Assembly (NCBI GenBank): GCA_947857085.1
Contig: CANUDF010000001.1
Coordinates: 3,841 to 67,840 of the forward strand
Direction: 5' to 3'
DNA: 64,000 nucleotides
From: Candidatus Gastranaerophilales bacterium
GTDB taxonomy: Bacteria; Cyanobacteriota; Vampirovibrionia; Gastranaerophilales; Gastranaerophilaceae
Shown here: positions 20,783 through 39,490 of the stretch, piece by piece
How positions within the stretch are numbered: position 1 is the stretch's first letter
Layout of the letters: every line of letters starts with the position of its first letter
Program-made: the position numbers and the translations under genes
The notes under the pieces: model-generated
Told to the model about the DNA's origin: nothing
Seen by the model: the letters and a program-made list of their open reading frames with translations, nothing else
Database searches by the model: none

Positions 20783-21092
20783 AATATCTCCTAACTCCGA
20801 CTTAATGTATTATAAATAAATTTTCTCTGAAATGCAATAGTTCATTAAGCAAATTTGACCGGTCTGCTTAGTACTAAAATTTTTTCTTACGGTTAATTTA
20901 ACCAATCTAATATAAAAGTTGGTTACTTACGCCATTTTGCAAGAATATATTCAATCTGCGCGGCAAATTCTACCCATATTTTTAACTATTTTTTGCTATT
21001 CTTTTACAATAAATTAATACAAATAGCAAAAAAAACATTTATGAGTTTTATAAAATACATTTACAACAATAAACCTGAGACAGGCATTATTT

Positions 21093-22898: not shown

Positions 22899-22977
22899 GC
22901 AGAAAATAAAATTAATACAACAAACAAATATGATACTATAAATGTAGTATCCTACTTACTAAAAGCATATTATATCC

Positions 22978-25017: not shown

Positions 25018-25388
25018 AGACCTTCCCACTTTCACATTTACGTAAGTTTTATAGATTCATTTTCTGATATACCCCCAAAAAGATATCTTTTAGATATATG
25101 CCACTATATGCTAGTATTAATAAAACAAAACAAAACAAAAACAAAATATTTTTATTCTAATATGCTAACTTTTTTAATAATTTGTTACAATTGTATCACT
25201 TTTATTCGATTAAAACATAAAAAAGTGTCTGATAGTTGCTATTCAATCCAATCATAGTTTTTGAAGTTCATCAGAATGGATTTCATAAAATATTTCCCAC
25301 TAGGGGATTAAAAAAATTGCTTGCCCGAAATTCTCAAACTAAACGTTAAAATACAATTGTTTAGAGTCTTAACAACAAAATTCAGTCA

Positions 25389-25435
25389 TAAAAAAACTCC
25401 CCAGGTTGGACTCGAACAAACAACCTACTGGTTAA
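25389..25435 (-). repeat. Degenerate copy of the 3' half of tRNA-Asn (distal att-like repeat)
   Basis: This segment matches 39412..39457, which runs from the anticodon loop (TTAA) through the 3' end plus ~8 nt downstream. The copies differ by 2 substitutions and 1 A-run indel. Confidence 0.85.
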
Positions 25436-25568
25436 GCTACGCTGGGTAGATGTAGACGTTTATAATGAAGAAATAACTATCAGAAATTCTAAATTTATAT
25501 AAATACAGAATATGTTTAAAAATCCTAAAACGAATAAGCCTTATGTAGATATAAAAATAGCATAATCT

Positions 25569-25862
25569 CTAAATAAAAAAGTCCTGATATCCAGTTAAAA
25601 CTCTTAATATATAAAGAATATCATCCTTAACATAGTATATAATTTGGTAATGTTTAGCTACAATACACTCTCTAACATCTCGTCTAACGAAATTAGATTT
25701 TCTGAATCCACTTTTAGGAAATAAAGCTAAAGTATTAAACTTTTTTTCAAAAAGGTCTATCATTTCAATAGCCTTAGCGACATTATCTTGGGCAATAAAA
25801 TCAAAAATATTTTGCATGTCTACTTCAGCAGCAGTTGTAATTATAATATTTAAGTTAGGCAT
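25569..25862 (-). CDS. parE: Type II toxin, ParE/RelE family
   Basis: 97 aa. It overlaps the upstream antitoxin ORF by 8 nt, and its C-terminal YQIIYYVKDDILYILRVLTGYQDF is typical of ParE. Confidence 0.75.
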   Translation of the reverse strand: MPNLNIIITTAAEVDMQNIFDFIAQDNVAKAIEMIDLFEKKFNTLALFPKSGFRKSNFVRRDVRECIVAKHYQIIYYVKDDILYILRVLTGYQDFFI

Positions 25863-26103
25863 ATTTCTTTCTTAAATCCTTAAATACTTCCTCGCTAGAG
25901 CGACCTTTACCAGCTTGCATTTCTTCCCAACCTTTTTCAATTTCAGAATTGAGGTTTTCAATATTTTCTTTAGAAATGTTATTATCTATAAAAGCAACCT
26001 GAACAGCAAATGAAATTGCGTCTTCTAATGTATCAAAAATTCCCTCGGAAACTTTAGCTTTTAAAAGATTTTCTATATTATTTGGTAAAGAAGATATATC
26101 CAT
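25855..26103 (-). CDS. Type II antitoxin, ParD-like
   Basis: 82 aa. It lies immediately upstream of and overlapping the ParE-like ORF. It is small and acidic, with a helical SEGIFDTLEDAISFAV segment. Confidence 0.6.
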   Translation of the reverse strand: MDISSLPNNIENLLKAKVSEGIFDTLEDAISFAVQVAFIDNNISKENIENLNSEIEKGWEEMQAGKGRSSEEVFKDLRKKYA

Positions 26104-26171
26104 AATCTAACCTCATATTAATAAAAATTGTATAATTAGATTATAACAAATTAACGGTAAAATTTCAATAT

Positions 26172-26221
26172 AGCTGTAAAGTAACACTTAGTTTGAGAAA
26201 AAGTAACAGTAGGTTTGAGAA
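26172..26221 (+). repeat. Left-end site pair: two tandem ~22-bp sites (aaagtaacaNtNNgtttgagaa)
   Basis: aaagtaacacttagtttgagaa and aaaagtaacagtaggtttgagaa sit back to back. They are the inverted partners of 38790..38812 and 38918..38940. Confidence 0.7.
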
Positions 26222-26341
26222 TTTTATATGTTTAACTAAAATTTTTATGATGCTAATCAAATAATTTTATACGAAGTTTTCCGATGCAATAATTTCTTGT
26301 AAAAATTTTCTATTGTACTTGATTTAAAGCATTTTGATAGT

Positions 26342-27613
26342 ATGATTATATGCATGGTACCATGCTTAGATGATAGAATTAAAGAAAATAATAATTTTAC
26401 TATTTTAAATTATCAAGGTAGTAAGAAAAATTTGATTGATTTTATTCATAAGCATATAGATAATTTAATCATTCCAGAAAAAGCTTTTTTAGATATTTTT
26501 GCAGGAACTTGTGCTGTTGGCTATAGTTATAAGTCTTGTTGCCCAGTATATGCTAATGATTTAGAATATTATTCTTACTTAATAGCTGATTCTTTATTGA
26601 ATAATTATAATAACTATAATTTTAATAAGATAAAAAAAGAAATAGGCAATCAATTTAAAAACTTATACAATTTAAAATTAAAAAAATATGATAAGTGGAT
26701 TATTGCAGAAGAAACTTTTTTAGAATCCAATAAAATAGAAGATTTAATTGATTTATATAGCTCATATCCAACAATATGGAATAACGCCGAAATGATATTG
26801 GATAAAAAGCAATATATCCTTTTTACGTCATATTATGCTGGTAATTATTTTGGAATAAAACAAGCTATAGAAATTGATTGTTTAAGAAATTTAATTGAAA
26901 ACATTGATAGTAATTTATTCTCAATGTTAATATCATGTTTATTTTTTGCTATGAAAAATTGTGTATTTTCAAAGGATGGTCATATGGCTCAACCGTTAGA
27001 TTTGCATAAAAATGCTTCAAAACTAATATTTAAGCGCAAAAATTCTATTTTGGATAATTTTTATAGCAAATTAACGGAATACTTTTCTTCAGAGTTTATA
27101 AATACTAATTTTTCTAACTCCGCATATAATATGGATTTTGAAAATCTTATAAAGTTAAAAGAAATTCAAGATAATGTTGGACTTATATATGCTGATCCAC
27201 CATATACAGATATGCAATATTCTAGATACTATCATTTATTAAACATTGTTTCTAAATATGATTATCCAAAGCCAACATTAATAAAAAATGTATATACCAA
27301 AGGTTTATATACTGAAGGCAGAAGTCAATCTTTGCTTAGCCAAAAACGATATTGTCTAGAGCATTTTAGTAATCTTATTAACTTTTCAAAAAAATATAAC
27401 AAAAATCTTGCTATCAGCTTTGCATATCCCAATGATCCAATACTTCAAAAAACGGATAGATATGTTATGAGCATTGAAGAAATAGTAAGAGAATGTACCA
27501 AAGTCTTTAAAGAAAAAAATGTAAATGTTGTATCAACAAAATACAATCATTCAAACAATAGAAATACACAAACAAAAAAGGTATTAGAGTATTTAATACT
27601 ATGTAAATATTAA
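26342..27613 (+). CDS. Dam-like (D12 class) N6-adenine DNA methyltransferase
   Basis: It has NYQGSKKN (the Y-x-G-x-K block), FAGTCAV (motif I) and IYADPPY (motif IV), in the order I...IV. At 423 aa it is larger than canonical Dam. Confidence 0.7.
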   Translation: MIICMVPCLDDRIKENNNFTILNYQGSKKNLIDFIHKHIDNLIIPEKAFLDIFAGTCAVGYSYKSCCPVYANDLEYYSYLIADSLLNNYNNYNFNKIKKEIGNQFKNLYNLKLKKYDKWIIAEETFLESNKIEDLIDLYSSYPTIWNNAEMILDKKQYILFTSYYAGNYFGIKQAIEIDCLRNLIENIDSNLFSMLISCLFFAMKNCVFSKDGHMAQPLDLHKNASKLIFKRKNSILDNFYSKLTEYFSSEFINTNFSNSAYNMDFENLIKLKEIQDNVGLIYADPPYTDMQYSRYYHLLNIVSKYDYPKPTLIKNVYTKGLYTEGRSQSLLSQKRYCLEHFSNLINFSKKYNKNLAISFAYPNDPILQKTDRYVMSIEEIVRECTKVFKEKNVNVVSTKYNHSNNRNTQTKKVLEYLILCKY

Positions 27614-27614
27614 T

Positions 27615-29198
27615 ATGGAAATTTGCTTAGAAAAAATAAAAGATAAAATAAATAAAGCGACAGCTACCAATAGAAATGATCTATATGATTCACATATCTA
27701 TTGGTCACAAAAACCTTATAATATTTGTGATATTCTAATAAATTCATTTAGCAAAAAAGGTGATATTGTTTTTGATCCATTTCTAGGTTCTGGAGTAACA
27801 TTATTACAATCTATAAAAAAAGAGAATGATCGTATTGGTATTGGTTGTGAAATTAATGATGCACCTATTTTTATTGTTAATACCCTATTGGCAAAATATG
27901 ATACTAAAAAATTCAAAAAAATATCAGAAGAATTTATTCAACAATTAAAAAAACTATTACCATATTATTACACGAAATGTCCTTATTGTGGGAAAAATGC
28001 AGTAATAACATCTGTAATTTTTGATAAACCGTCAAGAAATGCTGATATTAATATTAAAACAATTAATTTTAGATGTTCTTGTACTAGTAAATCTACAAAA
28101 TTAGCTGATGATAATGATTACAAATCAATAAATATAAATGAAGAAATTAAAAATATTAAAAGCGAGTTTCTAATTCCGAACTCAAAAATAGCCGTATATG
28201 AAAATCAACATATTGATCAGATTTTTACAAAACGAAATTATCTAATTTTAGATAAAATTATAGGAATAATAAACCATCTTGAAAACTATAGTGATTTGTT
28301 TAAATATTTATTAATGTCTATTATTCATTTAGCAAAAATCACTGATACACATTCATCTTCACAGTGGCCGCTTTGGATTCCGAAGAATAACTGCGTTGAA
28401 AAAAACATTATTGATTTAATAGAAAAAAAAGTTATTAAATTTGAGAAAACAATAAAATATTTAAATAATAATTACTCTAACACTAACTCTTATAAATTAT
28501 TGCACAAGGGCAGTCAGTTTATAGATGATACAGATATTTCAGATGAATCCATTCAACTTATTATTACTGATCCTCCATACTTAGGACAAGTTGCATATTC
28601 AGAATATATGCAATTATATAAACCTTTTTTAAATTTAAATTTTAATTTAGACGATGAAATAATTGTGTCATCTGCACCTTCAAGAAATAAAAACGAAGAC
28701 CAATATTTCAAAGACCTAGATAATGTATTTTCAATATGTTCAAAAAAAATGAAAAATGAAGGTTATTTGTGTTTGTATTTTCATGATAGCAGTCTAGAAG
28801 TATGGGATAAATTAATTAATATATTGTCAAAAAATCACTTTAAATATTTATCACAAGCACATATACGAAAATCAAACACTTTAAAGAATATAATAAGCCC
28901 CAAAAAGTCTCTGAATGGAGATTGTATATTATTTTTCCAAAAGGATAATAACATTGCTTCGAATCCTATTGGTTCAGAAGATATATTAGAAATCGAACAA
29001 AATATTATAAAACAAGCGAAATTTTTAGTAAAACGAGCGAATTGCCTTTCTACTCCAGAATTGTATGATTTGGGTCTTATGGAAATTTTAATTCACAATG
29101 GATGGTTAAATCCATTATCAAAAAAATACAAATCTTTAGTTGATATATTTGAAAAGCATTTAATTTGGGATTCAATTAAATCAAAATGGACTCTTTAA
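27615..29198 (+). CDS. Alpha-class amino (N6A/N4C) DNA methyltransferase with Cys-rich insert
   Basis: It has VFDPFLGSGVT (motif I) near the N-terminus, a CPYCG...CSC insert, and IITDPPY (motif IV) about 260 aa later. It starts 1 nt after the upstream MTase stop. Confidence 0.7.
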   Translation: MEICLEKIKDKINKATATNRNDLYDSHIYWSQKPYNICDILINSFSKKGDIVFDPFLGSGVTLLQSIKKENDRIGIGCEINDAPIFIVNTLLAKYDTKKFKKISEEFIQQLKKLLPYYYTKCPYCGKNAVITSVIFDKPSRNADINIKTINFRCSCTSKSTKLADDNDYKSININEEIKNIKSEFLIPNSKIAVYENQHIDQIFTKRNYLILDKIIGIINHLENYSDLFKYLLMSIIHLAKITDTHSSSQWPLWIPKNNCVEKNIIDLIEKKVIKFEKTIKYLNNNYSNTNSYKLLHKGSQFIDDTDISDESIQLIITDPPYLGQVAYSEYMQLYKPFLNLNFNLDDEIIVSSAPSRNKNEDQYFKDLDNVFSICSKKMKNEGYLCLYFHDSSLEVWDKLINILSKNHFKYLSQAHIRKSNTLKNIISPKKSLNGDCILFFQKDNNIASNPIGSEDILEIEQNIIKQAKFLVKRANCLSTPELYDLGLMEILIHNGWLNPLSKKYKSLVDIFEKHLIWDSIKSKWTL

Positions 29199-29200
29199 CA

Positions 29201-31591
29201 CTAGCTTTCTAATATTCCATTATAATATTTGTTTGGAAATGCATCATTTAGTTGTTGGACAATTTCTTGACCATTTATTATTTTAATATCATTTGCGCAG
29301 GCTATTGTTTTTCCATCTTGCGTGTAATCTGATGTTGTAATACATACTGCGATATCGAAACCTCTTCGAATTTTTTCAGAATGTAAACGTTGAATTGGTT
29401 CGCTTCCAACATTGGCAACCCAACGTTTACATTGGAATAAGTATTTAGTTGTATTGCCATTTGTTATTTTTTTTGCGAGCAAATCAACACCTAGGTCTCC
29501 AGAACCTCCAGTATTAATTACATCAATATAGCCTTGCGCTTCGAGTAATGATTTTATAATTATTTCAAAATCCGTCCCCGATAAACATGATACATCTATT
29601 GCATCATCAGAAATTGCGTTTGTATATGTTTTTTTGATATAAACATTTTCATTGCAATCGCAATAATTTTTAATTATTTTTTTTATTTCATTTTGACAAT
29701 TATTATCATCTAAAAAACTATTAATAGAATTAGGATTACCATCACATAGTTTGTTTGCTATTTCAAAATAAAGATCATCTAATACAAATTGTCCGTTTTT
29801 TTCTAGTAATTCTTTTATAAATAACGGCATCAAATCATATAATTTTGTAAATAAATCATTATTGTCTTCAATATCAAGATATAACTTGTTACAGTTTATT
29901 CTCACTATTGCATTTGTGTCTATATGAAAATTTTGTTGTATTACAGAAGTAATCTTCTCAATATCACTTTCGGTTGCAATATAAGATTGTTTCTCTTTCA
30001 AAATGTCTAAAATATATTGCACGCAGGTAGTTAAAGTAATATCAGAATTTGCAGTTTGTAGTATTTTATTATATATTAATTTGACAACTTCAAATTCATA
30101 GTTTTTATTACCTACATACCAATAAGCTTCGGTTTTAGGCAATTTCTCGAAAAATACAATCATTTCTTTTGATAAGGTATTTTTGTATGCAGATTGTTTT
30201 CTGATTGTCGGATCATTTTTATCAATTCCAATTCTGGCAATATACTCAAACCCATTTTTTCTTGCAAGATTTATAATTTGAGTCAAAGTTTCAAAATATT
30301 TTCTTGCACCAAGTTTAATTGTAAAGATAGCAAGTTTGTTATCTTTTAAAACCTTGATAAAGTTTTTAAACATGGTATCTATATCATTAAAATAATTATC
30401 AAGAGATTGTTTGTTTGGTCTTGAAGGTGCATTTGTTAACACTAATTCATTATTAAGCATATCCTCAGTTAATTCAAATTCACCAGGTTTATAAAATTTA
30501 TTCAACCATTTTCTATATAACTGATTCCATTCTAAATATGGCACTTGATCTGTATAAGGGAAGTCAGTATATATCATATCAAATTTTTGTTCTAGGCAAT
30601 TATTTATATAGGCTTGATAAGGAACGTTATATAGTTCGTATAAATTGTTATTTTCCGGATTTGTTGATAATATTTCGCAAAATTCTTCCTGAAATTTAAT
30701 AAGTGCTTCAACTTTGTTTTTAAATATTTCCCAAACATTCGTTTCTTGTGCTCCTTTCATAACAACATGGTATAAACGGTCAGTTGATGAACCATACATT
30801 GCAATTCTAGATAATGCAAGAGATGATACTAACATGAATTCTAAAAAATCTTTTTCCGGACTATTTGTTAAGTTTTTAATACCATTTTGAAGAATCAATA
30901 GTGCTTTTTGATTTCTTTTAGTAAAAAGCCTATTATAATAATCGGCACCAGTTGCTGCAGTTATATTTATTCTGCTATTTTCAATATATTTATCATTAGG
31001 AAAATCTTCAATATGTTCATTATTTATTTCATTTAATTTTTCTAAATCATAGCTAGAAAAATGTTTATATAAATTATGACATTTAGAACACCTTTCAACT
31101 AATTTCACATTTTTCCCATCTTGTATATCTCTATTATCCGTTGGATTAAAATATTCTTCTGTTTGTGGATCATAAAATAATTTTGAAATATAGTTTTTTT
31201 CTCCACAACATTCTGTTTCATATAGATTCATAATTAACGGCTTGGTATCAGTTTCTAATTGATTTAGATAATTTTGTAATATTTCCAAGTTTATTTTCTT
31301 AAATATTGTTTTTACAATAGAAAAAGTATAATTATCAATTTCATTCCCAATGATTTTTTTATTAGCCATTGATGCCGCGATAATAAAAGAACCAGACCCC
31401 ATAAATGGATCATAAAGTACATCATTTGGACCAGCTAGCGTTTCTATGATGTTGTGTGCAATGTCAATTGACTTTCTACCGGGAAAGTTAAACACAGTCT
31501 TAAAAGAATGAGGGACTTTATTTTCAACACCTTCCAAATTAGCAATTAAAGTTCTAATTTTTTGATAAGTTTCTTCATTGATTCTTTTCAT
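29201..31591 (-). CDS. Fusion protein: alpha-class DNA methyltransferase-like module plus C-terminal Mrr-type (PD-(D/E)xK) restriction endonuclease domain
   Basis: The N-terminal module (LYDPFMGSGSF, CC..CSKC insert, IYTDFPY, NAPSRPNK) is colinear with 27615..29198. The C-terminal FEIIIKSLLEAQGY..GGSGDLGVDLL..FQCKRW..VG..CITTSDYT matches the Mrr catalytic domain pattern. Confidence 0.7.
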   Translation of the reverse strand: MKRINEETYQKIRTLIANLEGVENKVPHSFKTVFNFPGRKSIDIAHNIIETLAGPNDVLYDPFMGSGSFIIAASMANKKIIGNEIDNYTFSIVKTIFKKINLEILQNYLNQLETDTKPLIMNLYETECCGEKNYISKLFYDPQTEEYFNPTDNRDIQDGKNVKLVERCSKCHNLYKHFSSYDLEKLNEINNEHIEDFPNDKYIENSRINITAATGADYYNRLFTKRNQKALLILQNGIKNLTNSPEKDFLEFMLVSSLALSRIAMYGSSTDRLYHVVMKGAQETNVWEIFKNKVEALIKFQEEFCEILSTNPENNNLYELYNVPYQAYINNCLEQKFDMIYTDFPYTDQVPYLEWNQLYRKWLNKFYKPGEFELTEDMLNNELVLTNAPSRPNKQSLDNYFNDIDTMFKNFIKVLKDNKLAIFTIKLGARKYFETLTQIINLARKNGFEYIARIGIDKNDPTIRKQSAYKNTLSKEMIVFFEKLPKTEAYWYVGNKNYEFEVVKLIYNKILQTANSDITLTTCVQYILDILKEKQSYIATESDIEKITSVIQQNFHIDTNAIVRINCNKLYLDIEDNNDLFTKLYDLMPLFIKELLEKNGQFVLDDLYFEIANKLCDGNPNSINSFLDDNNCQNEIKKIIKNYCDCNENVYIKKTYTNAISDDAIDVSCLSGTDFEIIIKSLLEAQGYIDVINTGGSGDLGVDLLAKKITNGNTTKYLFQCKRWVANVGSEPIQRLHSEKIRRGFDIAVCITTSDYTQDGKTIACANDIKIINGQEIVQQLNDAFPNKYYNGILES

Positions 31592-31765
31592 ACTTAAACT
31601 ACCTCAACTCTTTAAAACTATTCTTCATTTATCTCATAAAAATATGTTTATATCAATTTAGAATATAAATTTTTGTACTTAAAAATTAAAAAATAATTAA
31701 TTTTGAGCCGATTTGCTAAAATTTAATATATGATTTTCATGAGAAATTGAACTATAGAGTTAAAT

Positions 31766-33442
31766 ATGGTGGAAGAGGAAAAAGTTAAAACTATTAATCT
31801 CAATATAATGTTATTAAAAAATTGTTGTAATTTAAACAATCGAGAAGATTATATTGATAAATATTCAGAAAAAAATATTATAAAAGGTGGCAAGAGCAAT
31901 GATTCTTACTTTTTATATAAAAATGGTCGAGGAAAAAGCAAACCTTCTTGGGTTTTAGAATTTGATGAAAAAGTATTAGATGGGATCAAAGATTCTTTTG
32001 AAGATACTTCTTCTGAAGGACTTTCTGTTATTAAACAGATTAATTACAAAAATATAAATTATTTATTTTCAATAAATTTTGGTCAAGGATGGAGAAATAT
32101 AAAAAAAGACAAAATAGAAGATACTTTTGGTATATATACAACAATTGCAATAATAGAAGAAGGTGCTAAAATACGTAGAGCAGGAACACGAAATATATCA
32201 AGCAATCCTAAAAATACAGAATTTCAACATGCTTTTGAAATTACAAATGAGACATTTAACTCAGAATTAGAAGATAATGATATTATAAGACATTTGAATG
32301 CAACAGCTGATACTTCTACTATTAGCTCGGTCATTGGTAAATATGGTCCTTTAAATATAAGAATGAGGTTTAAGGAATCAGAAATCCCTTGTTGGGACTA
32401 TCTTGATGACAGATTATTGTCATTATTAGAACAGTATTTAAAAATACAAACAAATGAAAGAATTATAAATAAATATTTTAAAGGATTACGCCCATTACCT
32501 AGTGCTAAGCAAAAAGAATTAAATGATAACCTTGACTCTAAAATACTCGAAGATACTTCTAAATTTTTCTTATTTGAACCAGAAATAGACTATGATCCTA
32601 CTATTATTTCAAGTATCAAATACAAATTAAAAGAGGATTCTAGAGCCTCTGAAACATACGAAAATTTAAAATTGGAAGATTATCTAGTTTTAAGAGAATC
32701 CAAAATGCCTTTAAATTTAAATGAAGATAAAGTCTTTTTAATAAATGAAGATGGGAAAAAGTGTAAAGAATGGACCATTTTAAAGTGTCTATATGGCGAA
32801 ATTAAACAAGACAATCAAGTCTATATATTATCAAATTCTGTCTGGTATGGTATGTCTAATGATAAATACGAACGAATTAATAAAAATATTAAAGCGATAC
32901 AAGAAGATTTTTATATAGATGATTGTACCAAGGAATCTACACAAAAAAGTATTATGAAGCAAAAATTAAAAGGTGTAAAACAAATAGCCAAAGAACGAAT
33001 TTTTAATACGGCATTATGTAAACAACTTTCAGGTGAATTATTTGATGAAATTAGTCAACAAATTACTATTGATGGTGACAAGATGGAAGTTTGTGATATT
33101 TTTAATCCAAAAGAAAAAGAATTTATTCATTCAAAAATAAGTTCTGATGCTGCGAAACTTAGCCATCTTTTTAATCAGGGATATGTTTCTGCAAGAGCAT
33201 TCGCATCGATGAAAGAACAATATGTATCATTAGTAAATGAAAAAATGAAAAATGAAGAACATAAATTAGATGATTCACAAAATTCGCATCAAAAATATAC
33301 CATAAGGTATCTAATAATAAATGGTAATACTAAAAATAGATTAACTTTTATAAGCAAGTTAGCTCTTGATAAAATTATTACCGATTTAAAAGGTTTTGGT
33401 TATAATGTTAAATTGTCTTGGGTAAATCAAATCAGTTTATAA
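31766..33442 (+). CDS. Uncharacterised protein, probably DUF6119 / TIGR04141 'sporadically distributed' family
   Basis: At 558 aa, its N-terminal INLNIMLLK..., FSINFGQGW and C-terminal MEVCDIF..FIHSKISSDAAKLSHLFNQGYVSA fit my recollection of that family (E.CD..iH.K...S..LSHLf.QG.vSa). This is not verified by search. Confidence 0.45.
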   Translation: MVEEEKVKTINLNIMLLKNCCNLNNREDYIDKYSEKNIIKGGKSNDSYFLYKNGRGKSKPSWVLEFDEKVLDGIKDSFEDTSSEGLSVIKQINYKNINYLFSINFGQGWRNIKKDKIEDTFGIYTTIAIIEEGAKIRRAGTRNISSNPKNTEFQHAFEITNETFNSELEDNDIIRHLNATADTSTISSVIGKYGPLNIRMRFKESEIPCWDYLDDRLLSLLEQYLKIQTNERIINKYFKGLRPLPSAKQKELNDNLDSKILEDTSKFFLFEPEIDYDPTIISSIKYKLKEDSRASETYENLKLEDYLVLRESKMPLNLNEDKVFLINEDGKKCKEWTILKCLYGEIKQDNQVYILSNSVWYGMSNDKYERINKNIKAIQEDFYIDDCTKESTQKSIMKQKLKGVKQIAKERIFNTALCKQLSGELFDEISQQITIDGDKMEVCDIFNPKEKEFIHSKISSDAAKLSHLFNQGYVSARAFASMKEQYVSLVNEKMKNEEHKLDDSQNSHQKYTIRYLIINGNTKNRLTFISKLALDKIITDLKGFGYNVKLSWVNQISL

Positions 33443-33462
33443 TTAAAAATCAAAAGCAAAAC

Positions 33463-33506
33463 ATTGTTCAAAAAGTGTTCAACAGTGTTCAAAAGGTGTT
33501 TAAAAA
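33463..33506 (+). repeat. Four tandem 10-11-bp repeats (GTGTTCAAMA-like), helically phased
   Basis: The repeats read attgttcaaaaa / gtgttcaaca / gtgttcaaaag / gtgtttaaaaa. They lie in the 147-bp gap between two convergent genes. Confidence 0.7.
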
Positions 33507-33589
33507 TCAAAATAGGTATCAGAGTGCCTTTTTGAAATTTTCATGCAAAATAACGCAAAATAAAAGGAGCTGTTAAACTCCCAAATAGA

Positions 33590-34423
33590 CTACTCATGAA
33601 AAAAATTTTCGGTATCAAATCGTGAAAAGTTTAGGTTTCTGAATTTTTCTATTTTATTATCTGAATATTCTTTCTTCACCCAACGAAGATATGTTTTAGC
33701 AGAAGATACTTTTGCTCGATTAATTTTTATTTTAATCAATCTCTCAAATCTTTGAATTGCAAGTTCTCGGGCTTCACTTAAAGAATACTGTTTTGGCGAA
33801 AGATAATATTCTTTAAAAAAATAATATATTTCACCGGGTTCTCTTGTTTCTGATCCTACAAGATTTATCAAGCCATTTCTTGAAATTTCATATTTAAATT
33901 TATTATATTTATTTAATGTAATATTGGCTGTTTTTAACGTCTTTTTAAGTTCTCTCTCATTCATTCCTTGAGTTTGTTTTAATAACTTGAACATATCTTT
34001 TATATTTTGTTTAGTTTCAGGAGGAGCAAAGAAATAATCAATAAAGCCATCTAACTCATTAATATATTTGGGAAAAACTTCTTTAGGCTTTTTAACTTGA
34101 AATGGCAACATATGACGCATGCAGTCGCTGTCACTTTCTATTGTTTTTTCTTTGGATTTACTTATTTGAGGAATATAAATATATGAATCCCCATTATCTC
34201 TTATAATATTTTTTGACGTTAGTTTTTCTAAAATCGGAATAATTTCTATTTTTGATTTTTCAAGTAGGATTTCTAAATCTTCTACTGTAAAAATATTTAA
34301 TTTCTTAATCGCTATTTCAATATTTTTTTCTAATAAATTTTTCCTATGTCTTGTTTCCACCTTAAAACTCCAGTTCTTGCTTTGTAATTTTCTTATATCC
34401 GTTAGTTTGTGCCAATTCTTCAA
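33590..34423 (-). CDS. Hypothetical HTH/winged-helix-like protein, third gene of the transposition operon
   Basis: The ORF-track ATG 34423 overlaps the ATPase gene by 62 nt. An in-frame GTG at 34360 lies 1 nt after the ATPase stop, with GGAG 7 nt upstream, so it is the likely coupled start. Confidence 0.5.
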   Translation of the reverse strand: MKNWHKLTDIRKLQSKNWSFKVETRHRKNLLEKNIEIAIKKLNIFTVEDLEILLEKSKIEIIPILEKLTSKNIIRDNGDSYIYIPQISKSKEKTIESDSDCMRHMLPFQVKKPKEVFPKYINELDGFIDYFFAPPETKQNIKDMFKLLKQTQGMNERELKKTLKTANITLNKYNKFKYEISRNGLINLVGSETREPGEIYYFFKEYYLSPKQYSLSEARELAIQRFERLIKIKINRAKVSSAKTYLRWVKKEYSDNKIEKFRNLNFSRFDTENFFHE

Positions 34424-35036
34424 TCTTTAAAATATAAATTACAATTTGCCTTAGTCGATTAGCATTTTTTGCAATCATTTCAATTACTTCATCATCAAGC
34501 GGAACTTCGCATAATTTTGTAACAATTTCTTTTATATCTTCAAAATCAAAAGGGACAAATTTATAAATACCCAAAAGCCTGTCATATAAATGCTTAAATC
34601 TTTTTAATTTTTTATCAGCAGCTCCCATTCCAACTAATAAAACAGGAATTCCTGTTTTATCGTGCAAATCACGAACTGTTTCAATAGCTCTTGTAGATTC
34701 TACCAAGTAATCAACTTCATCCACGATTAACATTCTTGGTTTTTCTATTAACTTCGCAACAGCTTGATCAAATAATTCAAAAGATGTTTTCTTTGGCTCT
34801 TCGCCTAATTCCTTAACAAGAGCTTTTAAAAACCAAATTCTTGACATTCCATTTGTTGCTGTAACCAGTATGGCATTTTGGTTTAAAGTCCACCAAAGAA
34901 CAGCATTGCTTTTACCCAATCCTGGTTCACCATATACAAGTCCAATTTTAGGAACATTATATTTTGCATTATTTAATCTTTCTATTAATGAAACAAATGC
35001 TCTAACATTTTTTGTTTTTACAAATGTTCTTCTCAT
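34362..35036 (-). CDS. MuB/TniB-like AAA+ ATPase (transposition target-capture protein)
   Basis: It has Walker A GEPGLGKSN and Walker B LIVDEVDYL. It is 224 aa and lies 12 nt downstream of the transposase gene. Confidence 0.65.
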   Translation of the reverse strand: MRRTFVKTKNVRAFVSLIERLNNAKYNVPKIGLVYGEPGLGKSNAVLWWTLNQNAILVTATNGMSRIWFLKALVKELGEEPKKTSFELFDQAVAKLIEKPRMLIVDEVDYLVESTRAIETVRDLHDKTGIPVLLVGMGAADKKLKRFKHLYDRLLGIYKFVPFDFEDIKEIVTKLCEVPLDDEVIEMIAKNANRLRQIVIYILKIEELAQTNGYKKITKQELEF

Positions 35037-35048
35037 AATTATCTCCCT

Positions 35049-36986
35049 TTAATCCTCAACGCCATACAACAATTTATATTCGGTTGATTTTTTATAATTA
35101 TCCACCCATTTTTGCTCATCTTCAGATAAATCGGGTTTGTTTTTTAGATAATCATATCTTTCGTATTTATTATGAAATACAATTTTTTCAGGTTGAATTT
35201 CATCTTCTTTTAAGCTTTCAATGAGCAACTTTTTATCTTCTATGCTTGGCTTATAAATCACATTATCGGTTTCATTTAGTGCCGGTAAATATACCTTTTC
35301 TTTTTTCAGTTCTCTAAGATATTGTTTTACAGTTTGCTTTTCAAGTTCTTTTTGTTGTTTAATTCGTTGTTTTAATTCTTCCACATCTTTTGCTTCGCCT
35401 GTATAATTAGCAAGTGGATGAATTGGGGCAAGTCTTTCGGCTGTACATAAAAATTCGCCCGACATTGTAAAAACTTTGATATAAGACAAATCAAAAAGAC
35501 TATATTTTATAACAACTTGAGTCCTTAATCCGTATAAACTTTCGTGATAATAATCGGATTTTAAAAATCTTATTCCGTTTCTGCCAATATTTTTAATAAC
35601 ATTTACCATCATTAAATCATCTAGTGTTGAAATATCAATGCCATTACCTTTTCCCGCATCAAATACTTCCCCAATACTTAAACCCTTTACATTAGGACAA
35701 GGTTGTGCATAATGAAAGTTAACCATCCAACGAGTAATATAATTTATAACTTCATCCATTGTAGGAATGTAATTGCTGTGAATTTCTTTGTGTAAGCGTT
35801 CATTGCGTTTTTTATAAGCTGGTTTATTATCAATACAAGAACCCACAAAAGAAGGCAATATACGTTCAAAACTATCCTGCATTTCCCTAAAAAATCTTTC
35901 TATCGGTTTAGCTTTGGCATTATATGGTTTTGCGAAAATCGGAGTTATTCCAAGTTTTATAAATAAACCGCTAATATCATCATCTGCTGTAAAATAATCA
36001 GCCTTATATGCTTTTCCGTTATCTTGATAAACAAATTTTGGATATTTACCCAATGCAATAATTGAATTTCTGAGTGCTGAAGCAATACATTGGGTATTTT
36101 CTTCCAACATAACTTCAAAACCAACCATTGCTCCAGATTTCCAATCTTGATAAGCAGCAATTGTCGGTCTGCATGGTTTGCCTGTAAATGGATTTATAAC
36201 CTCAAATGCAAGCCTATGCCCATCACCAATTAAAACATCTCCTACATTTAATTTTAAAATATCTCTTTCGATATATGGTATAACTTTATCTCTTAAGGCT
36301 TTTGCACCTTCTCTTGCAAATATCCACATATCATAGTGTTCCTGTTTATACTTGGAGATAAACCTCCGATATGTCATCTCGCATGCTAAATTAGTTACAC
36401 CCTGCTGTAATAAAAGATGCTTTGTTAATTTGATAGCTTTTCCAATATTTGGTTGGTTAGGGTTCAGTAATATTTTTAAAACTGTTTCCTTTTCTTTTTC
36501 TGAAAATTTATCTTTATTCGGTTGTGATTTATATTTTGGAGCTAGGACTTTCCAATTATCAGCATTTTCTTTTAGAAGTCTATCCCAACGCATTATTGTT
36601 GATATTGCTATATTGTTAATATTTTCATACTGATTATTTTTATTTGGCATGTTATTATAAACAGATACAAATTCTTTAATAGCATCAACCTTTTTACCTT
36701 TATAATTAACGCAAAAAGCACGCCATTTCATTACAATATCAAATTTAGTTAATGCTCGTTTTTTACTCTTTTCACTAATGGGAGTGTTAAAATTCTCTGT
36801 GGAAATTTCGGTCGAATATAGTTTATTAACTTCATCTTGCCACTCTTGTTCAATAGATGAAACTAAAACTTCATATCTCTGGCAAATTTTTCGCCCTATA
36901 TATTTTCCGCTTGTTACTAATTTGCGAACAGATCTATCAGATACGCCTTTAATTTTTGCAAGCTCGGTTGCTCTAATCCACTCCAT
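35049..36986 (-). CDS. Mu A-like DDE (rve/Mu-transposase) transposase
   Basis: It has an N-terminal HTH (IRATELAKIKGVSDRSVRKL). The DDE core is LIGDGHRLAF..RPTIAAYQDWKSG, VYQDNGKAY and KPIERFFREMQ. The GDG(H/Y)...RP...(W)QD spacing is like phage Mu A. Confidence 0.75.
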   Translation of the reverse strand: MEWIRATELAKIKGVSDRSVRKLVTSGKYIGRKICQRYEVLVSSIEQEWQDEVNKLYSTEISTENFNTPISEKSKKRALTKFDIVMKWRAFCVNYKGKKVDAIKEFVSVYNNMPNKNNQYENINNIAISTIMRWDRLLKENADNWKVLAPKYKSQPNKDKFSEKEKETVLKILLNPNQPNIGKAIKLTKHLLLQQGVTNLACEMTYRRFISKYKQEHYDMWIFAREGAKALRDKVIPYIERDILKLNVGDVLIGDGHRLAFEVINPFTGKPCRPTIAAYQDWKSGAMVGFEVMLEENTQCIASALRNSIIALGKYPKFVYQDNGKAYKADYFTADDDISGLFIKLGITPIFAKPYNAKAKPIERFFREMQDSFERILPSFVGSCIDNKPAYKKRNERLHKEIHSNYIPTMDEVINYITRWMVNFHYAQPCPNVKGLSIGEVFDAGKGNGIDISTLDDLMMVNVIKNIGRNGIRFLKSDYYHESLYGLRTQVVIKYSLFDLSYIKVFTMSGEFLCTAERLAPIHPLANYTGEAKDVEELKQRIKQQKELEKQTVKQYLRELKKEKVYLPALNETDNVIYKPSIEDKKLLIESLKEDEIQPEKIVFHNKYERYDYLKNKPDLSEDEQKWVDNYKKSTEYKLLYGVED

Positions 36987-37135
36987 TAAATCCTCCTGTA
37001 TTTTAATAATTTGTATTGAAGTACAATTTTTGTAGATTAATCAAGATAGGTTTTATATTATACTAAATAGACTAATGGTATAGTGGAATAATATACCATG
37101 TAATTCTAAAGTTTTGTTATAAATTACTCGGGCTG
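36987..37135. promoter_or_regulatory. Divergent control region between the transposase and the Mor-like gene, with an operator-like palindrome
   Basis: There is a perfect 8-bp inverted repeat, atggtata(9 nt)tataccat, at 37076..37100, and a second small palindrome, ttgta-ttgaag-tacaa, near 37011..37026. Confidence 0.35.
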
Positions 37136-37471
37136 ATGGTTATTATAATATTTCTCATGTATAATTGGTTTATGTACGACAAAGAACCTAAATGGGCAAA
37201 ATATATTACAGAAGATTCTATTGATGACTATGGTTTATTAGACTTAGTCAACATAATTGGACTTGAAGCAACAAAAAAGTTGATGATTCATTATGCAGGA
37301 AATAGCATTAGAATTCCAAAATCAGCCAATACAAAATATAAACATCAATATGTTTTAGATAATTATGATGGAACAAAAATCTCTAGAATGAGAACTGCTA
37401 TTGAATGTCAAATTACTGAAAATTATATTTTTAAAATTATGAAAATGTATAAAGATAAAAAGCCAATGTAA
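37136..37471 (+). CDS. Mor-like transcription activator family protein (tentative)
   Basis: At 111 aa, its AGNSIRIPK...YDGTKISRMRTAIECQITENYIFKIM fits the Mor pattern (G...iyIPK...f.G.n...la..y.ls.r.iyrI). It is divergent from the Mu A-like gene. Confidence 0.4.
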   Translation: MVIIIFLMYNWFMYDKEPKWAKYITEDSIDDYGLLDLVNIIGLEATKKLMIHYAGNSIRIPKSANTKYKHQYVLDNYDGTKISRMRTAIECQITENYIFKIMKMYKDKKPM

Positions 37472-37474
37472 AAA

Positions 37475-38677
37475 TTATACATTATAACCTAAGTATCTCA
37501 GTCCTGAATTTGTATTTTCGTTTCTAATTGGCAATTCATCCCTAAGAAGTCCAATAACTTCTTGTGCTGTGGATTCCCCAAAATATCTTATAGAAGAATT
37601 TTTTATTAATTTATCAAGTTCTTTTGGAGAAGCTATTTTTAATTTCTGAATACACGATTTTACATCTTTTACATTGTTTTCTTTTGCAAATTTCTCCTTC
37701 CAGTTAAATCTTACAGAATTGGTCAAATAAGTATTTATGTTATTTGCGAGAAATTCGGATATATCTTCTAAATTTGCACTATCTATGTTCTGATCCGAGA
37801 ATATTTCTAGTGCATTTTTTCTATAATTCAATCTGATGCCTTCATTATCCCATACAGAATCAGAAATTATCCAATTATGATATTCTTGAATACAATTTTT
37901 TAAAAGTTTTGCTTTTTGTTCACTATTTAAATTGTTTACTTCAAATGAATAGTAGTAATCTTTTGAAGAATTATTCTCTGAATGATGGAATAAGTAATTC
38001 AAGAAACTATCTATTTCAAATTTTAGCGGTGAATTTTTCCAAATTCTACCATAGGATTCATATTGTTTTGACAACTCATTATATTCATTCAGGAACTGTT
38101 CATAACTACATTTTTCAGTAAGCTCTTTTGGCAATTTAATAATTGGTTTTAAATCAGGATTAAAACCTTCTGTATCAATATAAGTTGAATTATTCAATGC
38201 TTCATCCAACATTTCTTGATTAACTGGTGTTCCAAGTTCCCAAATTTCATTGTACATTGCTTCAAATCTATCAACATCTAATATATCACCGGCAACACCT
38301 GTTTCATAGTTTACATATAATCCTCTATAGGTCATATTAGCAGAGGTTACAACCGAATAATCATCCATTAAATACATTTTTGCGTGTAAATGTTTTAAGC
38401 TTCTTAATTCACAATTATTACCTAAGAAAAATTTTAAAATTTTATAATTATTGATTGAAATATTATTCAAATCAGTAAGAAGTCTGAAATTTGGCTTGTG
38501 TTTCTTAATTTTGCTTATTTGAAAAATATAATAAAAAATCTTTTCACTACTTATAAATGGTGAAGATATCCATAGACGATTACATATTCTGCCTGAATGT
38601 TCGTGTAGATAATTGGTAATACAATCCATTTTTGTAGTATACCTAAAATCAATTAAATTATTAATTAAATCTGCCAT
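37475..38677 (-). CDS. Single-HKD phospholipase D-superfamily nuclease (Nuc/BfiI-like) with unknown C-terminal domain
   Basis: It has one canonical HxK(x)4D(x)6..SxN motif, LHAKMYLMDDYSVVTSANMT, in the N-terminal ~150 aa. The C-terminal ~230 aa end in an HhH-like segment, FGESTAQEVIGLL. Confidence 0.6.
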   Translation of the reverse strand: MADLINNLIDFRYTTKMDCITNYLHEHSGRICNRLWISSPFISSEKIFYYIFQISKIKKHKPNFRLLTDLNNISINNYKILKFFLGNNCELRSLKHLHAKMYLMDDYSVVTSANMTYRGLYVNYETGVAGDILDVDRFEAMYNEIWELGTPVNQEMLDEALNNSTYIDTEGFNPDLKPIIKLPKELTEKCSYEQFLNEYNELSKQYESYGRIWKNSPLKFEIDSFLNYLFHHSENNSSKDYYYSFEVNNLNSEQKAKLLKNCIQEYHNWIISDSVWDNEGIRLNYRKNALEIFSDQNIDSANLEDISEFLANNINTYLTNSVRFNWKEKFAKENNVKDVKSCIQKLKIASPKELDKLIKNSSIRYFGESTAQEVIGLLRDELPIRNENTNSGLRYLGYNV

Positions 38678-38789
38678 ACTTGCTCCTAAATACTATTATA
38701 TCTAACTATATTATTATAAATAAGCATACAAAACTAGTTCCGATAAATTGGTTCCGCAAATTTAAAAACTTTACTGATTTTTTATAAAT

Positions 38790-38940
38790 TTCTCAAACTC
38801 AATGTTACTTTTAAAAATCAGCTTTAAATATTTATATACATTAAATTTTAGGTGTTTATACATAAAACAAATTTATTGGGTTTGAGCCATAAAAGTTCCG
38901 CAAAATTACATTTTTTAAATTCTCAAACATATGTAATTTG
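38790..38940 (+). repeat. Right-end sites (ttctcaaac...gt(t/a)a(c/t)), inverted relative to 26172..26221
   Basis: The sites are ttctcaaactcaatgttactttt at 38790..38812 and aattctcaaacatatgtaatttg at 38918..38940. The first matches the reverse complement of 26199..26221 at 20 of 23 positions. Confidence 0.65.
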
Positions 38941-39078
38941 CCTTTCCGACCAATCCTGTTTATATTTCCGACCAATCCGTTTGTACTCATTTTATGTGTT
39001 ACTTTACACCTTATGATAATTTTTCCGAAACTTGGTGTTAATTTTTTAATTCCTTGCACAACTGGACTATACCAAAAT

Positions 39079-39262
39079 AATCAAACTATCCGTACACCTT
39101 AAAAACGGTGCTAAAACCAGCTATATTAAGAAAAAATCAAACTATCCGTACAGTCCCCAAAAAGTCCATTTCGGCAGTTTGATTTTTTTGGTAAACTTAA
39201 TTTTCCGACCCAAAAACGCCCTCGCAGAGCGGGCTGTCCAAAATAATCAAAGTATCCGTACA
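39079..39262 (+). repeat. Three direct copies of an 18-bp motif, aatcaaa(c/g)tatccgtaca
   Basis: The copies lie at 39079..39096, 39135..39152 and 39245..39262 (start spacings 56 and 110 bp). The reverse complement begins TGTAC. Confidence 0.8.
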
Positions 39263-39418
39263 AATAAAACCGGTCGTTAAATTACAATAGCCAAAATAAA
39301 TTAAATAATAAGTGCAGACAATAATAATTTTATTCAAGGGTAAATAATTATTTTTTTGGTCAATATATGGTCAATTTTTTTTAGTCGATTTTCGAGGGGG
39401 CTGAAACCCAATAAAAAA

Positions 39419-39490
39419 CTCCCCAGGTTGGACTCGAACCAACAACCTACCGGTTAACAGCCGGTTGCTCCGCCATTGAGCTACTGAGGA
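39419..39490 (-). tRNA. tRNA-Asn (anticodon GTT)
   Basis: The reverse complement TCCTCAGTAGCTCAATGG...CCGGCTGTTAACCGG...GGTTCGAGTCCAACCTGGGGAG folds into a cloverleaf with a CTGTTAA anticodon loop. CCA is not encoded. Confidence 0.9.

Follow-up and report, generated by a model that had tools for sequence, protein, structure and literature searches.

Phage Mu and transposon Tn7 are the two textbook systems in which a DDE transposase is paired with an AAA+ ATPase, Mu being a near-random phage replicon and Tn7 a site-specific 'safe-harbour' transposon. Cyanobacteria have Tn7-like elements which use TnsD to target tRNA genes and whose insertion distance is fixed (PMC11837452), and defence cargo is described for Tn7-like elements (PMC8649781). 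In Tn6022, which targets comM, the target selector is TnsF, an inactivated tyrosine recombinase (Faure et al., 2023; PMC10293859). The element described here lies in a 64,000-nt stretch of DNA from a Candidatus Gastranaerophilales bacterium (contig CANUDF010000001.1, positions 3,841 to 67,840), hereafter the window, and encodes a MuA-like transposase (A), a MuB-type ATPase (B), a Mor-like regulator and a third protein (C). It is probably an intact, recently mobile, non-viral DDE transposon in which Mor, A and B derived from a Mu-like phage are combined with the family-specific C, and whose insertion is oriented and directed to tRNA genes.

The element resembles phages of the Mu, B3, D3112 and RcapMu type in that its DDE transposase is MuA-like and has a Mu-transpos_C domain, the gene directly downstream encodes a short MuB-type AAA+ ATPase, and a Mor-family regulator is present. 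As in these phages, the target-site duplication (TSD) is 5 bp long with a pyrimidine (Y) at target position 2 and a purine (R) at position 4, and the ends begin with TGTA and contain several transposase-type repeats, which adjoin one another at one end but are spread out at the A-proximal end. However, it is without virion, lysis, Gam and late genes and measures 11–13 kb in its various copies, compared with 36–40 kb for the phages. It also possesses the additional core protein C and exchangeable defence cargo, and it inserts beside tRNA genes in one orientation, whereas the phages insert near-randomly.

With the tRNA-targeting, TnsD-using Tn7-like elements (among them the I-B2 and I-D CRISPR-associated transposons (CASTs), of Cyanobacteria) and with the V-K CASTs, the element shares the combination of a DDE transposase, an AAA+ adaptor and a third protein which recognises DNA (a putative function in the case of C). 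Insertion downstream of tRNA genes in one orientation, a 5-bp TSD and defence cargo are further points in common, TnsA is lacking as in the V-K CASTs, and the host lineage is sister to the Cyanobacteria. Unlike these systems, the element has no TniQ/TnsD domain, Cas proteins, CRISPR array or TnsA, and its A and B are of Mu type by sequence, their similarity to TnsB and TnsC being at superfamily level only (A to ShCAST TnsB, 3e-4; B to ShTnsC, 1.2e-4, and to the PADLOC TnsC model of type V-K, 2.4e-8). Its distance from the tRNA is loose and many tRNA species serve one element type, in contrast to the set distance of TnsD elements (PMC11837452). Tn552 (p480, p271, BinL) and Tn5053/Tn402 (TniA, TniB, TniQ, TniR) are likewise phage-less and encode a DDE transposase of the Mu-transpos_C type followed by an AAA+ ATPase, but the present element has no serine resolvase or TniQ, is far closer to phage MuA and MuB, and inserts in the flanks of tRNA genes and not at res sites.

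Boundaries and mobility of the element

The element was found to occupy positions 26175–39286 of the window (13,112 bp), with tips reading 5'-TGTAA...TTACA-3'. The cargo-side (far) terminus (26175..26221, plus strand) consists of the tip TGTAAAGTAACACTTAGTTTGAGAA and a second tandem site AAAGTAACAGTAGGTTTGAGAA, 22 bp apart, with the tip TGT at 26175 and the two 22-bp sites at 26180–26199 and 26202–26221. This far end is kept in five of the related loci or contigs that were fetched for comparison (designated by L-numbers, the window element being WIN), namely L002, L005, L006, L008 and L089; alignment similarity with the first four breaks off at the TGT, and L089 has the same far tip and tandem sites as the window element. 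The end-site motif occurs four times in the window compared with 0.17 expected. At the right terminus (39286) the minus strand reads TGTAATTTAACGACCGGTTTTATT, and similarity to two loci situated at other tRNAs (L047 and L026) extends out to this point.

The right terminus was assigned because of the 5-bp duplication ATAGC, present as identical copies at 26170..26174 and 39287..39291, and because of contigs representing the empty site, in which the 5-mer occurs only once. Five independent Logan metagenome contigs (L081–L085), retrieved by exact look-up of the ParD protein which flanks the left end, lack the element and have the tRNA-Asn and ParD flanks joined via a single GCTAT (ATAGC on the other strand). 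A sixth contig (L080) matches the window exactly through the left junction. Two further complete copies with TSDs of their own were identified, L005 (12,706 bp, TCTAT) and L089 (10,987 bp, CTTAA). The window element was the sole recovery of a strict screen for TGTAA tips paired with 5-bp TSDs, and a search for inverted 24-mer end pairs was swamped by AT-rich noise. Taken together, the termini, the TSD and the empty site identify the element as an intact transposon which moved recently, and there is hardly any doubt that it is an active, phage-less transposon of Mu type with these ends.

The original prediction for this DNA had placed the left end correctly, with its two tandem sites and the tip TGT at 26175, and the same end has now been seen in five related loci. 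The sites which it took for the right end (38790–38809 and 38918–38940) do exist, but they are internal and the second is merely a half-site. The true terminus at 39286 is ~480 bp farther out, 24 bp past the end coordinate given in that prediction, and the 'agct...cagct' symmetry to which it drew attention is coincidental. Other copies and empty target sites had been proposed as a check on the element, and both were found, in its favour.

The A-proximal end is a complex of ~550 bp (38738..39286, minus strand, read from the tip inward). The terminal site (39286–39263) is followed by the three repeats of the outer cap, TGTACGGATAGTTTGAT(TATTTTGG), at 39262–39246, 39152–39136 and 39096–39080, together with a terminator-like structure at 39231–39217 in which a GC hairpin is followed by a T-run, pointing inward from the tRNA. 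Farther in lie a transposase-type site (39041–39023), an inner tip-like sequence TGTAAAGTAACAC (39008–38996), a half-site (about 38940–38921) and another transposase-type site (38809–38790), all on the minus strand. The overall layout is asymmetric and resembles that of Mu and Tn7, with ~22-bp repeats at both ends, two being contiguous at the cargo end and the others spaced over ~550 bp at the A-proximal end. Seven CGGAA motifs were counted in 611 bp compared with ~1.2 expected, all on the minus strand within 38738–39207, and these may be operator or enhancer sites. CGGAAC clusters were also observed at the corresponding position in relatives, L023 among them. No RNA guide or known RNA was detected in the end region, Rfam hits at E<=1 being limited to the tRNA and a chance tmRNA fragment.

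The window element shares the outer 'cap' module of about 250–280 bp with L047 and L026, with similarity beginning exactly at the tip. It is carried by some elements and missing from close relatives, in which the inner tip is terminal. In cap-bearing elements (L029, L032, L037, L057 and L038) the inner tip TGTAAAG is often mutated to TATAAAG or TGTTAAG, which suggests that it may fall out of use once the cap provides the terminus.

Two other assignments of this end were considered and rejected. The inner TGTAAAGTAACAC at 39008 cannot be the right tip, as its flanks (CCTTA compared with ATAGC) form no TSD and the similarity to L047 and L026 runs outward to 39286. The three TGTACGGATAGTTTGAT (TGTACGG) repeats are not the leftover end of a second element, as they are enclosed by the TSD and the empty site, and homologous three-repeat caps are found inside the TSDs of L005 and L089.

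Transposition proteins and the third core protein

Protein A (35049..36986, minus strand, 645 aa) has Mu-transpos_C as its sole Pfam match (1e-11). Among solved structures its best match is MuA (4fcy, transpososome chain), with an E-value of 3.8e-7 for the single sequence and 8.6e-12 when a profile of 19 sequences was used, the DDE residues being aligned. D255, D322 and E363 are invariant in 19 homologues, and the motifs GDGH, YQDNG and KPIERFF line up in this alignment with the catalytic residues D269, D336 and E392 of MuA. By comparison, the A profile matched ShCAST TnsB at only 3e-4 and Tn7 TnsB not at all at E<=10. In a phage collection 278 records were matched, and among the matches listed all of the annotated ones are transposases of transposable phages (phiRTG5, 1e-29; RcapMu, 4e-19; Mu, 2e-10). 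Among plasmids, the p480 transposase of Tn552 (on S. aureus plasmids) was matched at 1e-4.

Protein B (34362..35036, minus strand, 224 aa) follows A after a gap of 12 nt, with an AGGGAG ribosome-binding site before it, and carries Walker A (GEPGLGKS) and Walker B (LIVDEVD) motifs (Pfam AAA_22, 2e-17; TniB, 2.3e-7). Its tblastn matches to B proteins of transposable phages (HS6, 4e-36; RcapMu, 2e-24; RR1-B) range from 4e-36 to 1e-21 and cover 93–99% of its length. Matches to solved structures (ShTnsC, 1.2e-4; MuB 8xvb, 4.7e-4; VchTnsC) are weak and about equal, and the PADLOC model matched is TnsC of type V-K (2.4e-8). The regulator (37136..37471, plus strand) is a helix-turn-helix (HTH) protein of the Mor family encoded divergently from A at a conserved position. 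Although its own Pfam Mor match (2.6e-4) is below the Pfam cut-off, 16 of 24 orthologues match Pfam Mor at E<0.01. The alignment suggests that the real start is ~12 codons in, near 37172. No capsid, portal, tail, terminase, lysis, TnsA, TniQ, resolvase or integrase match was obtained among the nine element proteins in Pfam, NCBIfam or PADLOC.

In these respects the original prediction holds up well. The genes and their order are as it described them, the core motifs of A are real and align with those of MuA, and A is indeed closer to MuA than to Tn7 TnsB. The MuB-like nature of B is borne out by the full-length phage matches, and that of the Mor-like gene by the family as a whole, though the window copy is under the cut-off. 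The translational coupling proposed for B and C is seen in the stop codon (TAA) of B, the GTG start of C 1 nt further on (34360) and a GGAG upstream. The lack of capsid, tail, lysis, TnsA, resolvase and TniQ genes agrees with the searches above, and the phage-less character with the defined ends of the 13.1-kb unit and with the cargo open reading frames (ORFs) of relatives, 116 in number, among whose top families virion families do not figure. Restriction-modification and DrmC-like PLD models were matched in the cargo, which had been called defence-type. The overall interpretation was thus sound, but the right terminus was mislocated and the oriented, tRNA-directed insertion was missed.

Protein C (33590..34360, minus strand, start GTG at 34360) is a family-specific, predicted DNA-binding protein of 256 aa. 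No match to it was found in Pfam, NCBIfam, PADLOC, PDB sequences or phage genomes, yet it is syntenic in about 50 loci. An AlphaFold2 model (pLDDT 77) consists of an N-terminal winged helix and a helical, HTH-like C-terminal domain, for which Foldseek returned generic winged-helix-turn-helix (wHTH) matches and a weak MuA match (E 0.01), none at E<=0.001. Compared with TnsD (9bw1_M) the Foldseek E-value was 0.06 with a probability of 0.38, and the C model is without a zinc ribbon. TniQ (PF06527) was not matched at E<=0.01 in C or any other protein of the element. A profile search of 1.84 billion cluster representatives recovered 84 relatives of C in two length classes, ~250 and ~540 aa.

The longer class belongs to a sister clade of 35 loci (e.g. 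L035, 12628–14708) in which A is 50–54% identical to the window A. Here C has 541–613 aa (typically about 545–555) and is a window-type C fused to a SAM-like and a Phage_integrase domain (PF00589, 1.7e-8), a recombinase domain which the window C does not have. The catalytic residues were read from an alignment of the clade's sequences with one another and with 4a8e, an archaeal XerA structure. At the Arg I position S, N or T is found, the histidine of HxxR has mostly given way to Ser and His III to Tyr, and Arg II is replaced, usually by Gln, whereas the tyrosine is kept; there is one clear exception to the loss of the arginines. As the catalytic arginines are replaced, the domain is, on its sequence, an inactivated and catalytically dead recombinase, which fits a DNA-recognition (selector) role for C. 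Directly after C, the sister clade encodes a 142-aa HTH protein which matches the Phage_terminase small subunit (2.3e-8) and DUF1804 (1.9e-7) and is similar to Mu gp27.

The sister-clade C invites comparison with TnsF of Tn6022, the known precedent, in that the third gene of a DDE/AAA+ transposon includes a domesticated recombinase domain, here a Phage_integrase domain that has lost both catalytic arginines; the likeness is one of domain type. TnsF differs in having N-terminal zinc fingers, acting with TniQ and targeting comM, whereas the sister-clade C has an N-terminal wHTH/HTH, no TniQ partner and a tRNA-proximal target. The likeness is confined to the sister clade.

Insertion beside tRNA genes and its possible basis

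The landmark of the target in the window is a tRNA-Asn(GTT) gene (39419..39490, minus strand), predicted by ARAGORN and scoring 66.6 bits with the Rfam tRNA model. Its 3' end faces the A-proximal tip with 132 nt between them, so that the insertion is outside the tRNA gene. When loci with >=3 kb of upstream sequence were examined, a same-strand tRNA was found <=5.5 kb upstream of A in 31 of 56 (27 of 39 among the Mor-bearing loci), compared with none of 56 for a tRNA in the opposite orientation and one of 53 for a tRNA <=5.5 kb downstream, which served as control. Sixteen tRNA species are used, with the 3' end of the tRNA towards the A-proximal end of the element. Near-identical ends occur at different tRNAs, as in L020 (Arg) and L022 (Ser), at 97%, and L035 (His) and L041 (Met), at 96%, and therefore one element type uses many tRNA loci. 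Insertion is thus very probably directed to tRNA genes and oriented with respect to them.

Many tips are located 7–50 nt past the T-tract of the tRNA terminator. Among the target 5-mers, position 2 is preferentially Y and position 4 preferentially R; the Mu target consensus is N-Y-G/C-R-N. Tandem arrays were observed in L002 (8950–9030) and L092 (about 9030–9077), where the A-proximal region of an 81%-identical element is met directly by the cargo end of a second one. These second elements have two tandem sites and the tip TGTAAATGAACAC or TGTAAAGTAACATAAG, and the abutting ends indicate that elements accumulate in tandem at one site. In L016 and L051 short T-arm-like fragments (GGGTTCGAAC, GGGATTCGAACTC and ATTCGAACCC) are present between the tRNA and the element, and these may have been left behind by integrase-type islands which used the same tRNA hot spots.

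In the proposed mechanism, an A multimer would pair the ends, nick their 3' ends and join them to the target with a 5-bp stagger, B acting as the ATP-dependent target-capture and activator subunit. C would bind a feature of the tRNA gene or terminator region and nucleate or orient B, and this positioning by C and B would place the A-proximal end towards the tRNA at a loose distance of 26–207 nt. With no 5' nuclease of the TnsA type, movement would be replicative with resolution of the cointegrate by the host, or would proceed by nicking, joining and repair as in Mu infection. Expression would be regulated by the Mor-like protein and the one-stranded CGGAA repeats, and the hairpin and T-run of the end would stop transcription entering from the tRNA. 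The variable distance might be due to a B filament that differs in length, or to C recognising structure rather than sequence.

In this scheme C is a candidate target selector, and the chances that it has this role are put at about even. That it forms a new class of selector, unrelated to TniQ/TnsD, TnsE, TnsF and Cas and coupling a Mu-type A and B to some general property of tRNA genes or their terminators, is a more tentative proposal, somewhat short of an even chance. Several observations weigh against the explanation as a whole. The distance from tRNA to tip is variable (26–207 nt) and no fixed-distance motif was found in 25 aligned target flanks, unlike TnsD- or TniQ-guided insertion. Twenty-five of the 56 loci have no tRNA within 5.5 kb, which is explained by tandem elements in some but not in others. 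The fold of C has no significant match (best Foldseek E 0.01, TM ~0.2), and on that count an end-binding or regulatory accessory role is equally possible. The three cap repeats are unlike the transposase-type sites, and C might bind to them. Finally, far ends were recovered for the window-type subfamily only; none was seen in the 10-kb flanks of the sister clade, where apparent matches such as TCTATGGATATTTTGAT are gene starts.

Some of these points are also what would be expected if C were an end-binding, enhancer-binding or regulatory accessory, acting for instance on the cap repeats or on CGGAA, with the tRNA bias stemming from A and B, a host factor, a DNA structure linked to terminators, or selection for harmless sites. 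The best, if weak, fold match of the helical domain of C being the end-binding region of MuA, the cap repeats being unlike the far-end sites, and the many tips just beyond the terminator T-tract are all in keeping with such a role, as is the variable spacing without a motif. However, orientation is strict (31 to 0), which selection alone explains poorly, and the phage relatives which have A and B without C are ordinary Mu-like phages. Of the conserved core genes, C alone is peculiar to the site-specific family, and its fusion partner in the sister clade is an inactivated recombinase, a kind of domain shared with a known selector. An accessory role is for these reasons regarded as rather unlikely. 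Descent from a Tn7-like or Tn5053-like element with TnsB, TnsC and an unusual selector, instead of from Mu, would account for the TGT...ACA tips, the 5-bp TSD, the multiple asymmetric end sites, the oriented insertion beside a conserved gene and the matches of B to TnsC (2.4e-8 in PADLOC, 1.2e-4 for ShTnsC). Tn7-like elements also carry defence cargo (PMC8649781), and tRNA-targeting members are known in Cyanobacteria (PMC11837452). It is nevertheless improbable, as neither TniQ/TnsD nor TnsA was found among the element proteins, the A profile matches MuA at 8.6e-12 compared with 3e-4 for ShCAST TnsB and no match for Tn7 TnsB, and B matches transposable-phage B proteins over its full length (1e-21 to 4e-36). 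A Mor-family regulator, the Mu gp27-like DUF1804 protein of the sister clade and the fact that the closest A relatives beyond the family (38–48% identity) are in real Mu-like phages point the same way.

A relationship to phages could also take the form of a satellite, packaged by a helper Mu-like phage through a Mu-type left end (pac) with, in the sister clade, a small-terminase-like protein of its own. The 142-aa protein of that clade (Phage_terminase small subunit, 2.3e-8; DUF1804, 1.9e-7) is suggestive in this regard, metagenomes hold Mu-like phages with related A and B, and no other route of transfer between cells is visible. Yet the terminase-like gene is not in the window element, its matches may reflect the HTH domain alone, satellite hallmark genes, including those for capsid remodelling, were not seen, and above 50% identity the family has no representative among the viral contigs searched, which leaves only a small chance that the element is a satellite. 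One might also propose that the element is what remains of a decayed Mu-like prophage, or a tRNA island of the integrase type, and not an autonomous transposon, in view of its phage-type A, B and Mor, the low-GC island adjoining the tRNA and a 45-nt duplicate of the tRNA-Asn 3' end at 25391–25435. This is scarcely credible given a 13,112-bp unit with exact inverted tips and a 5-bp TSD, a site which is empty in five other samples, and two more complete copies (11.0 and 12.7 kb) with their own TSDs. Furthermore, the insertion is 132 nt outside the tRNA and not inside it, no active integrase is encoded, and the 45-nt tRNA-Asn repeat is assigned to an older, separate event.

As a Mu-derived transposon, the family bridges the Mu and Tn7 styles, with a Mu-type A and B working in a small non-viral element which has Tn7-like oriented insertion and defence cargo, and it is a natural experiment from which one may learn how adaptors of the MuB/TnsC type acquire target selectors. 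If C is indeed a new class of selector, any of >=16 tRNA loci could be used as an oriented safe harbour by one element type, and Tn7-style site-specific transposition would have been reinvented independently from Mu. The sister clade would be a second domestication of an inactivated recombinase, comparable with TnsF. With three proteins, defined ends and a proven active copy, reconstitution is feasible, and the system might serve as a compact protein-guided insertion tool.

Cargo, relatives and neighbourhood

Two cargo slots can be recognised, one between the A-proximal end and Mor and the other past C. The first is occupied in the window by a PLD-family nuclease-like protein (37475..38677, minus strand, 400 aa; Pfam PLDc_2, 3.1e-8) similar to DrmC and DpdK. 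This gene is present in WIN, L001 and L004 only, different defence genes being found in the slot at other loci, and the idea that it substitutes for TnsA was rejected because it is not conserved in relatives. Past C are a D12-class N6-adenine DNA methyltransferase (26342..27613, plus strand, 423 aa; Pfam MethyltransfD12, 2.2e-14; PADLOC MTase_II, 8.5e-25) and an N6/N4 DNA methyltransferase (27615..29198, plus strand, 527 aa; Pfam N6_N4_Mtase, 3e-21; PADLOC MTase_II, 2.2e-26, and PglX-like, 1.6e-21). These are accompanied by a fusion of a methyltransferase with an Mrr restriction endonuclease (29201..31591, minus strand, 796 aa; Pfam Mrr_cat, 2.2e-22, and N6_N4_Mtase, 6e-13; PADLOC MTase_II, PDC-S02 and mREase_IV) and by a DUF6119/TIGR04141 'sporadically distributed' protein (31766..33442, plus strand, 558 aa; Pfam DUF6119, 3.6e-73; TIGR04141, 3.6e-62), for which PADLOC gave no match.

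The top families of 116 cargo ORFs from 20 related loci are restriction-modification and other defence genes, including MmeI, type I and III restriction-modification, C5 and N6 methylases, GmrSD, RT-protease, Schlafen/AlbA and kinases. Families for capsid, portal, tail or large terminase were absent from these top families, and no capsid-remodelling or other satellite hallmark gene was seen in the same scan of relatives' cargo. Among the gut Melainabacteria, a poorly studied lineage, the family ranks as a major vehicle for genes of restriction-modification and other defence.

Homologues of A number in the thousands in a large protein collection, and at least 385 A loci were confirmed in a collection with one genome per species, mostly in metagenome-assembled genomes of gut Gastranaerophilales/Melainabacteria. 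The core order Mor(-), A, B, C is kept in about 50 of the 79 loci fetched, all else being variable. The viral contig collection (IMG/VR) held no family members above 50% A identity, and the nearest A relatives outside the family (38–48% identity) are on Mu-like phage contigs of that collection, four of the largest being 37–42 kb. Four such phage loci were scanned and found to have portal, head, protease and Gam genes; B is present in them and C is absent, save for one weak N-terminal match to the long C in L099. The simplest history consistent with these sequences would be that the transposition module of a Mu-like phage became a phage-less transposon, which then gained C. A description of the family was not found in the literature searched, the coverage of which is incomplete and hence no proof of novelty; the family, a transposon type of the Mu/Tn7 superfamily distinguished by a new third protein and by tRNA-directed insertion, is apparently undescribed.

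A more distant subfamily (L048, L058, L071 and L096; A 41–45% identical) has head-to-head pairs of A-B modules a few kb apart, and Mor or C was undetected in most of its members. Family contigs L001, L029, L040 and L050 have been assigned to bins of Clostridia, Alistipes, Muribaculaceae or Gammaproteobacteria, which looks like misbinning of short mobile-element contigs, because the host range is otherwise uniformly Melainabacteria.

The element is part of a low-GC island (~21000–39000) with a GC content of 0.23–0.32 compared with about 0.35 in the flanks. The 45-nt sequence at 25391–25435 is 95.6% identical to the tRNA-Asn 3' end (39413–39457), and 41 nt downstream of it is a solitary tip of the family type, TGTATTTTAACGTTTAGTTTGAGAA, on the minus strand (25355 to 25331). 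Judging from these two sequences, the region 25331–25435 appears to be what is left of an older family member which had inserted at an earlier copy of this tRNA site. Between 21093 and 25035 are genes for a DUF6829 protein of 601 aa, the N-terminal domain of which is a dual-specificity phosphatase, and for a 685-aa product without a Pfam or PADLOC match. These may be leftover cargo of the older element, the far end of which was not found. Between the old remnant and the present element, at 25569–26103, are a gene for a ParE toxin and a small upstream antitoxin-like (ParD) ORF.

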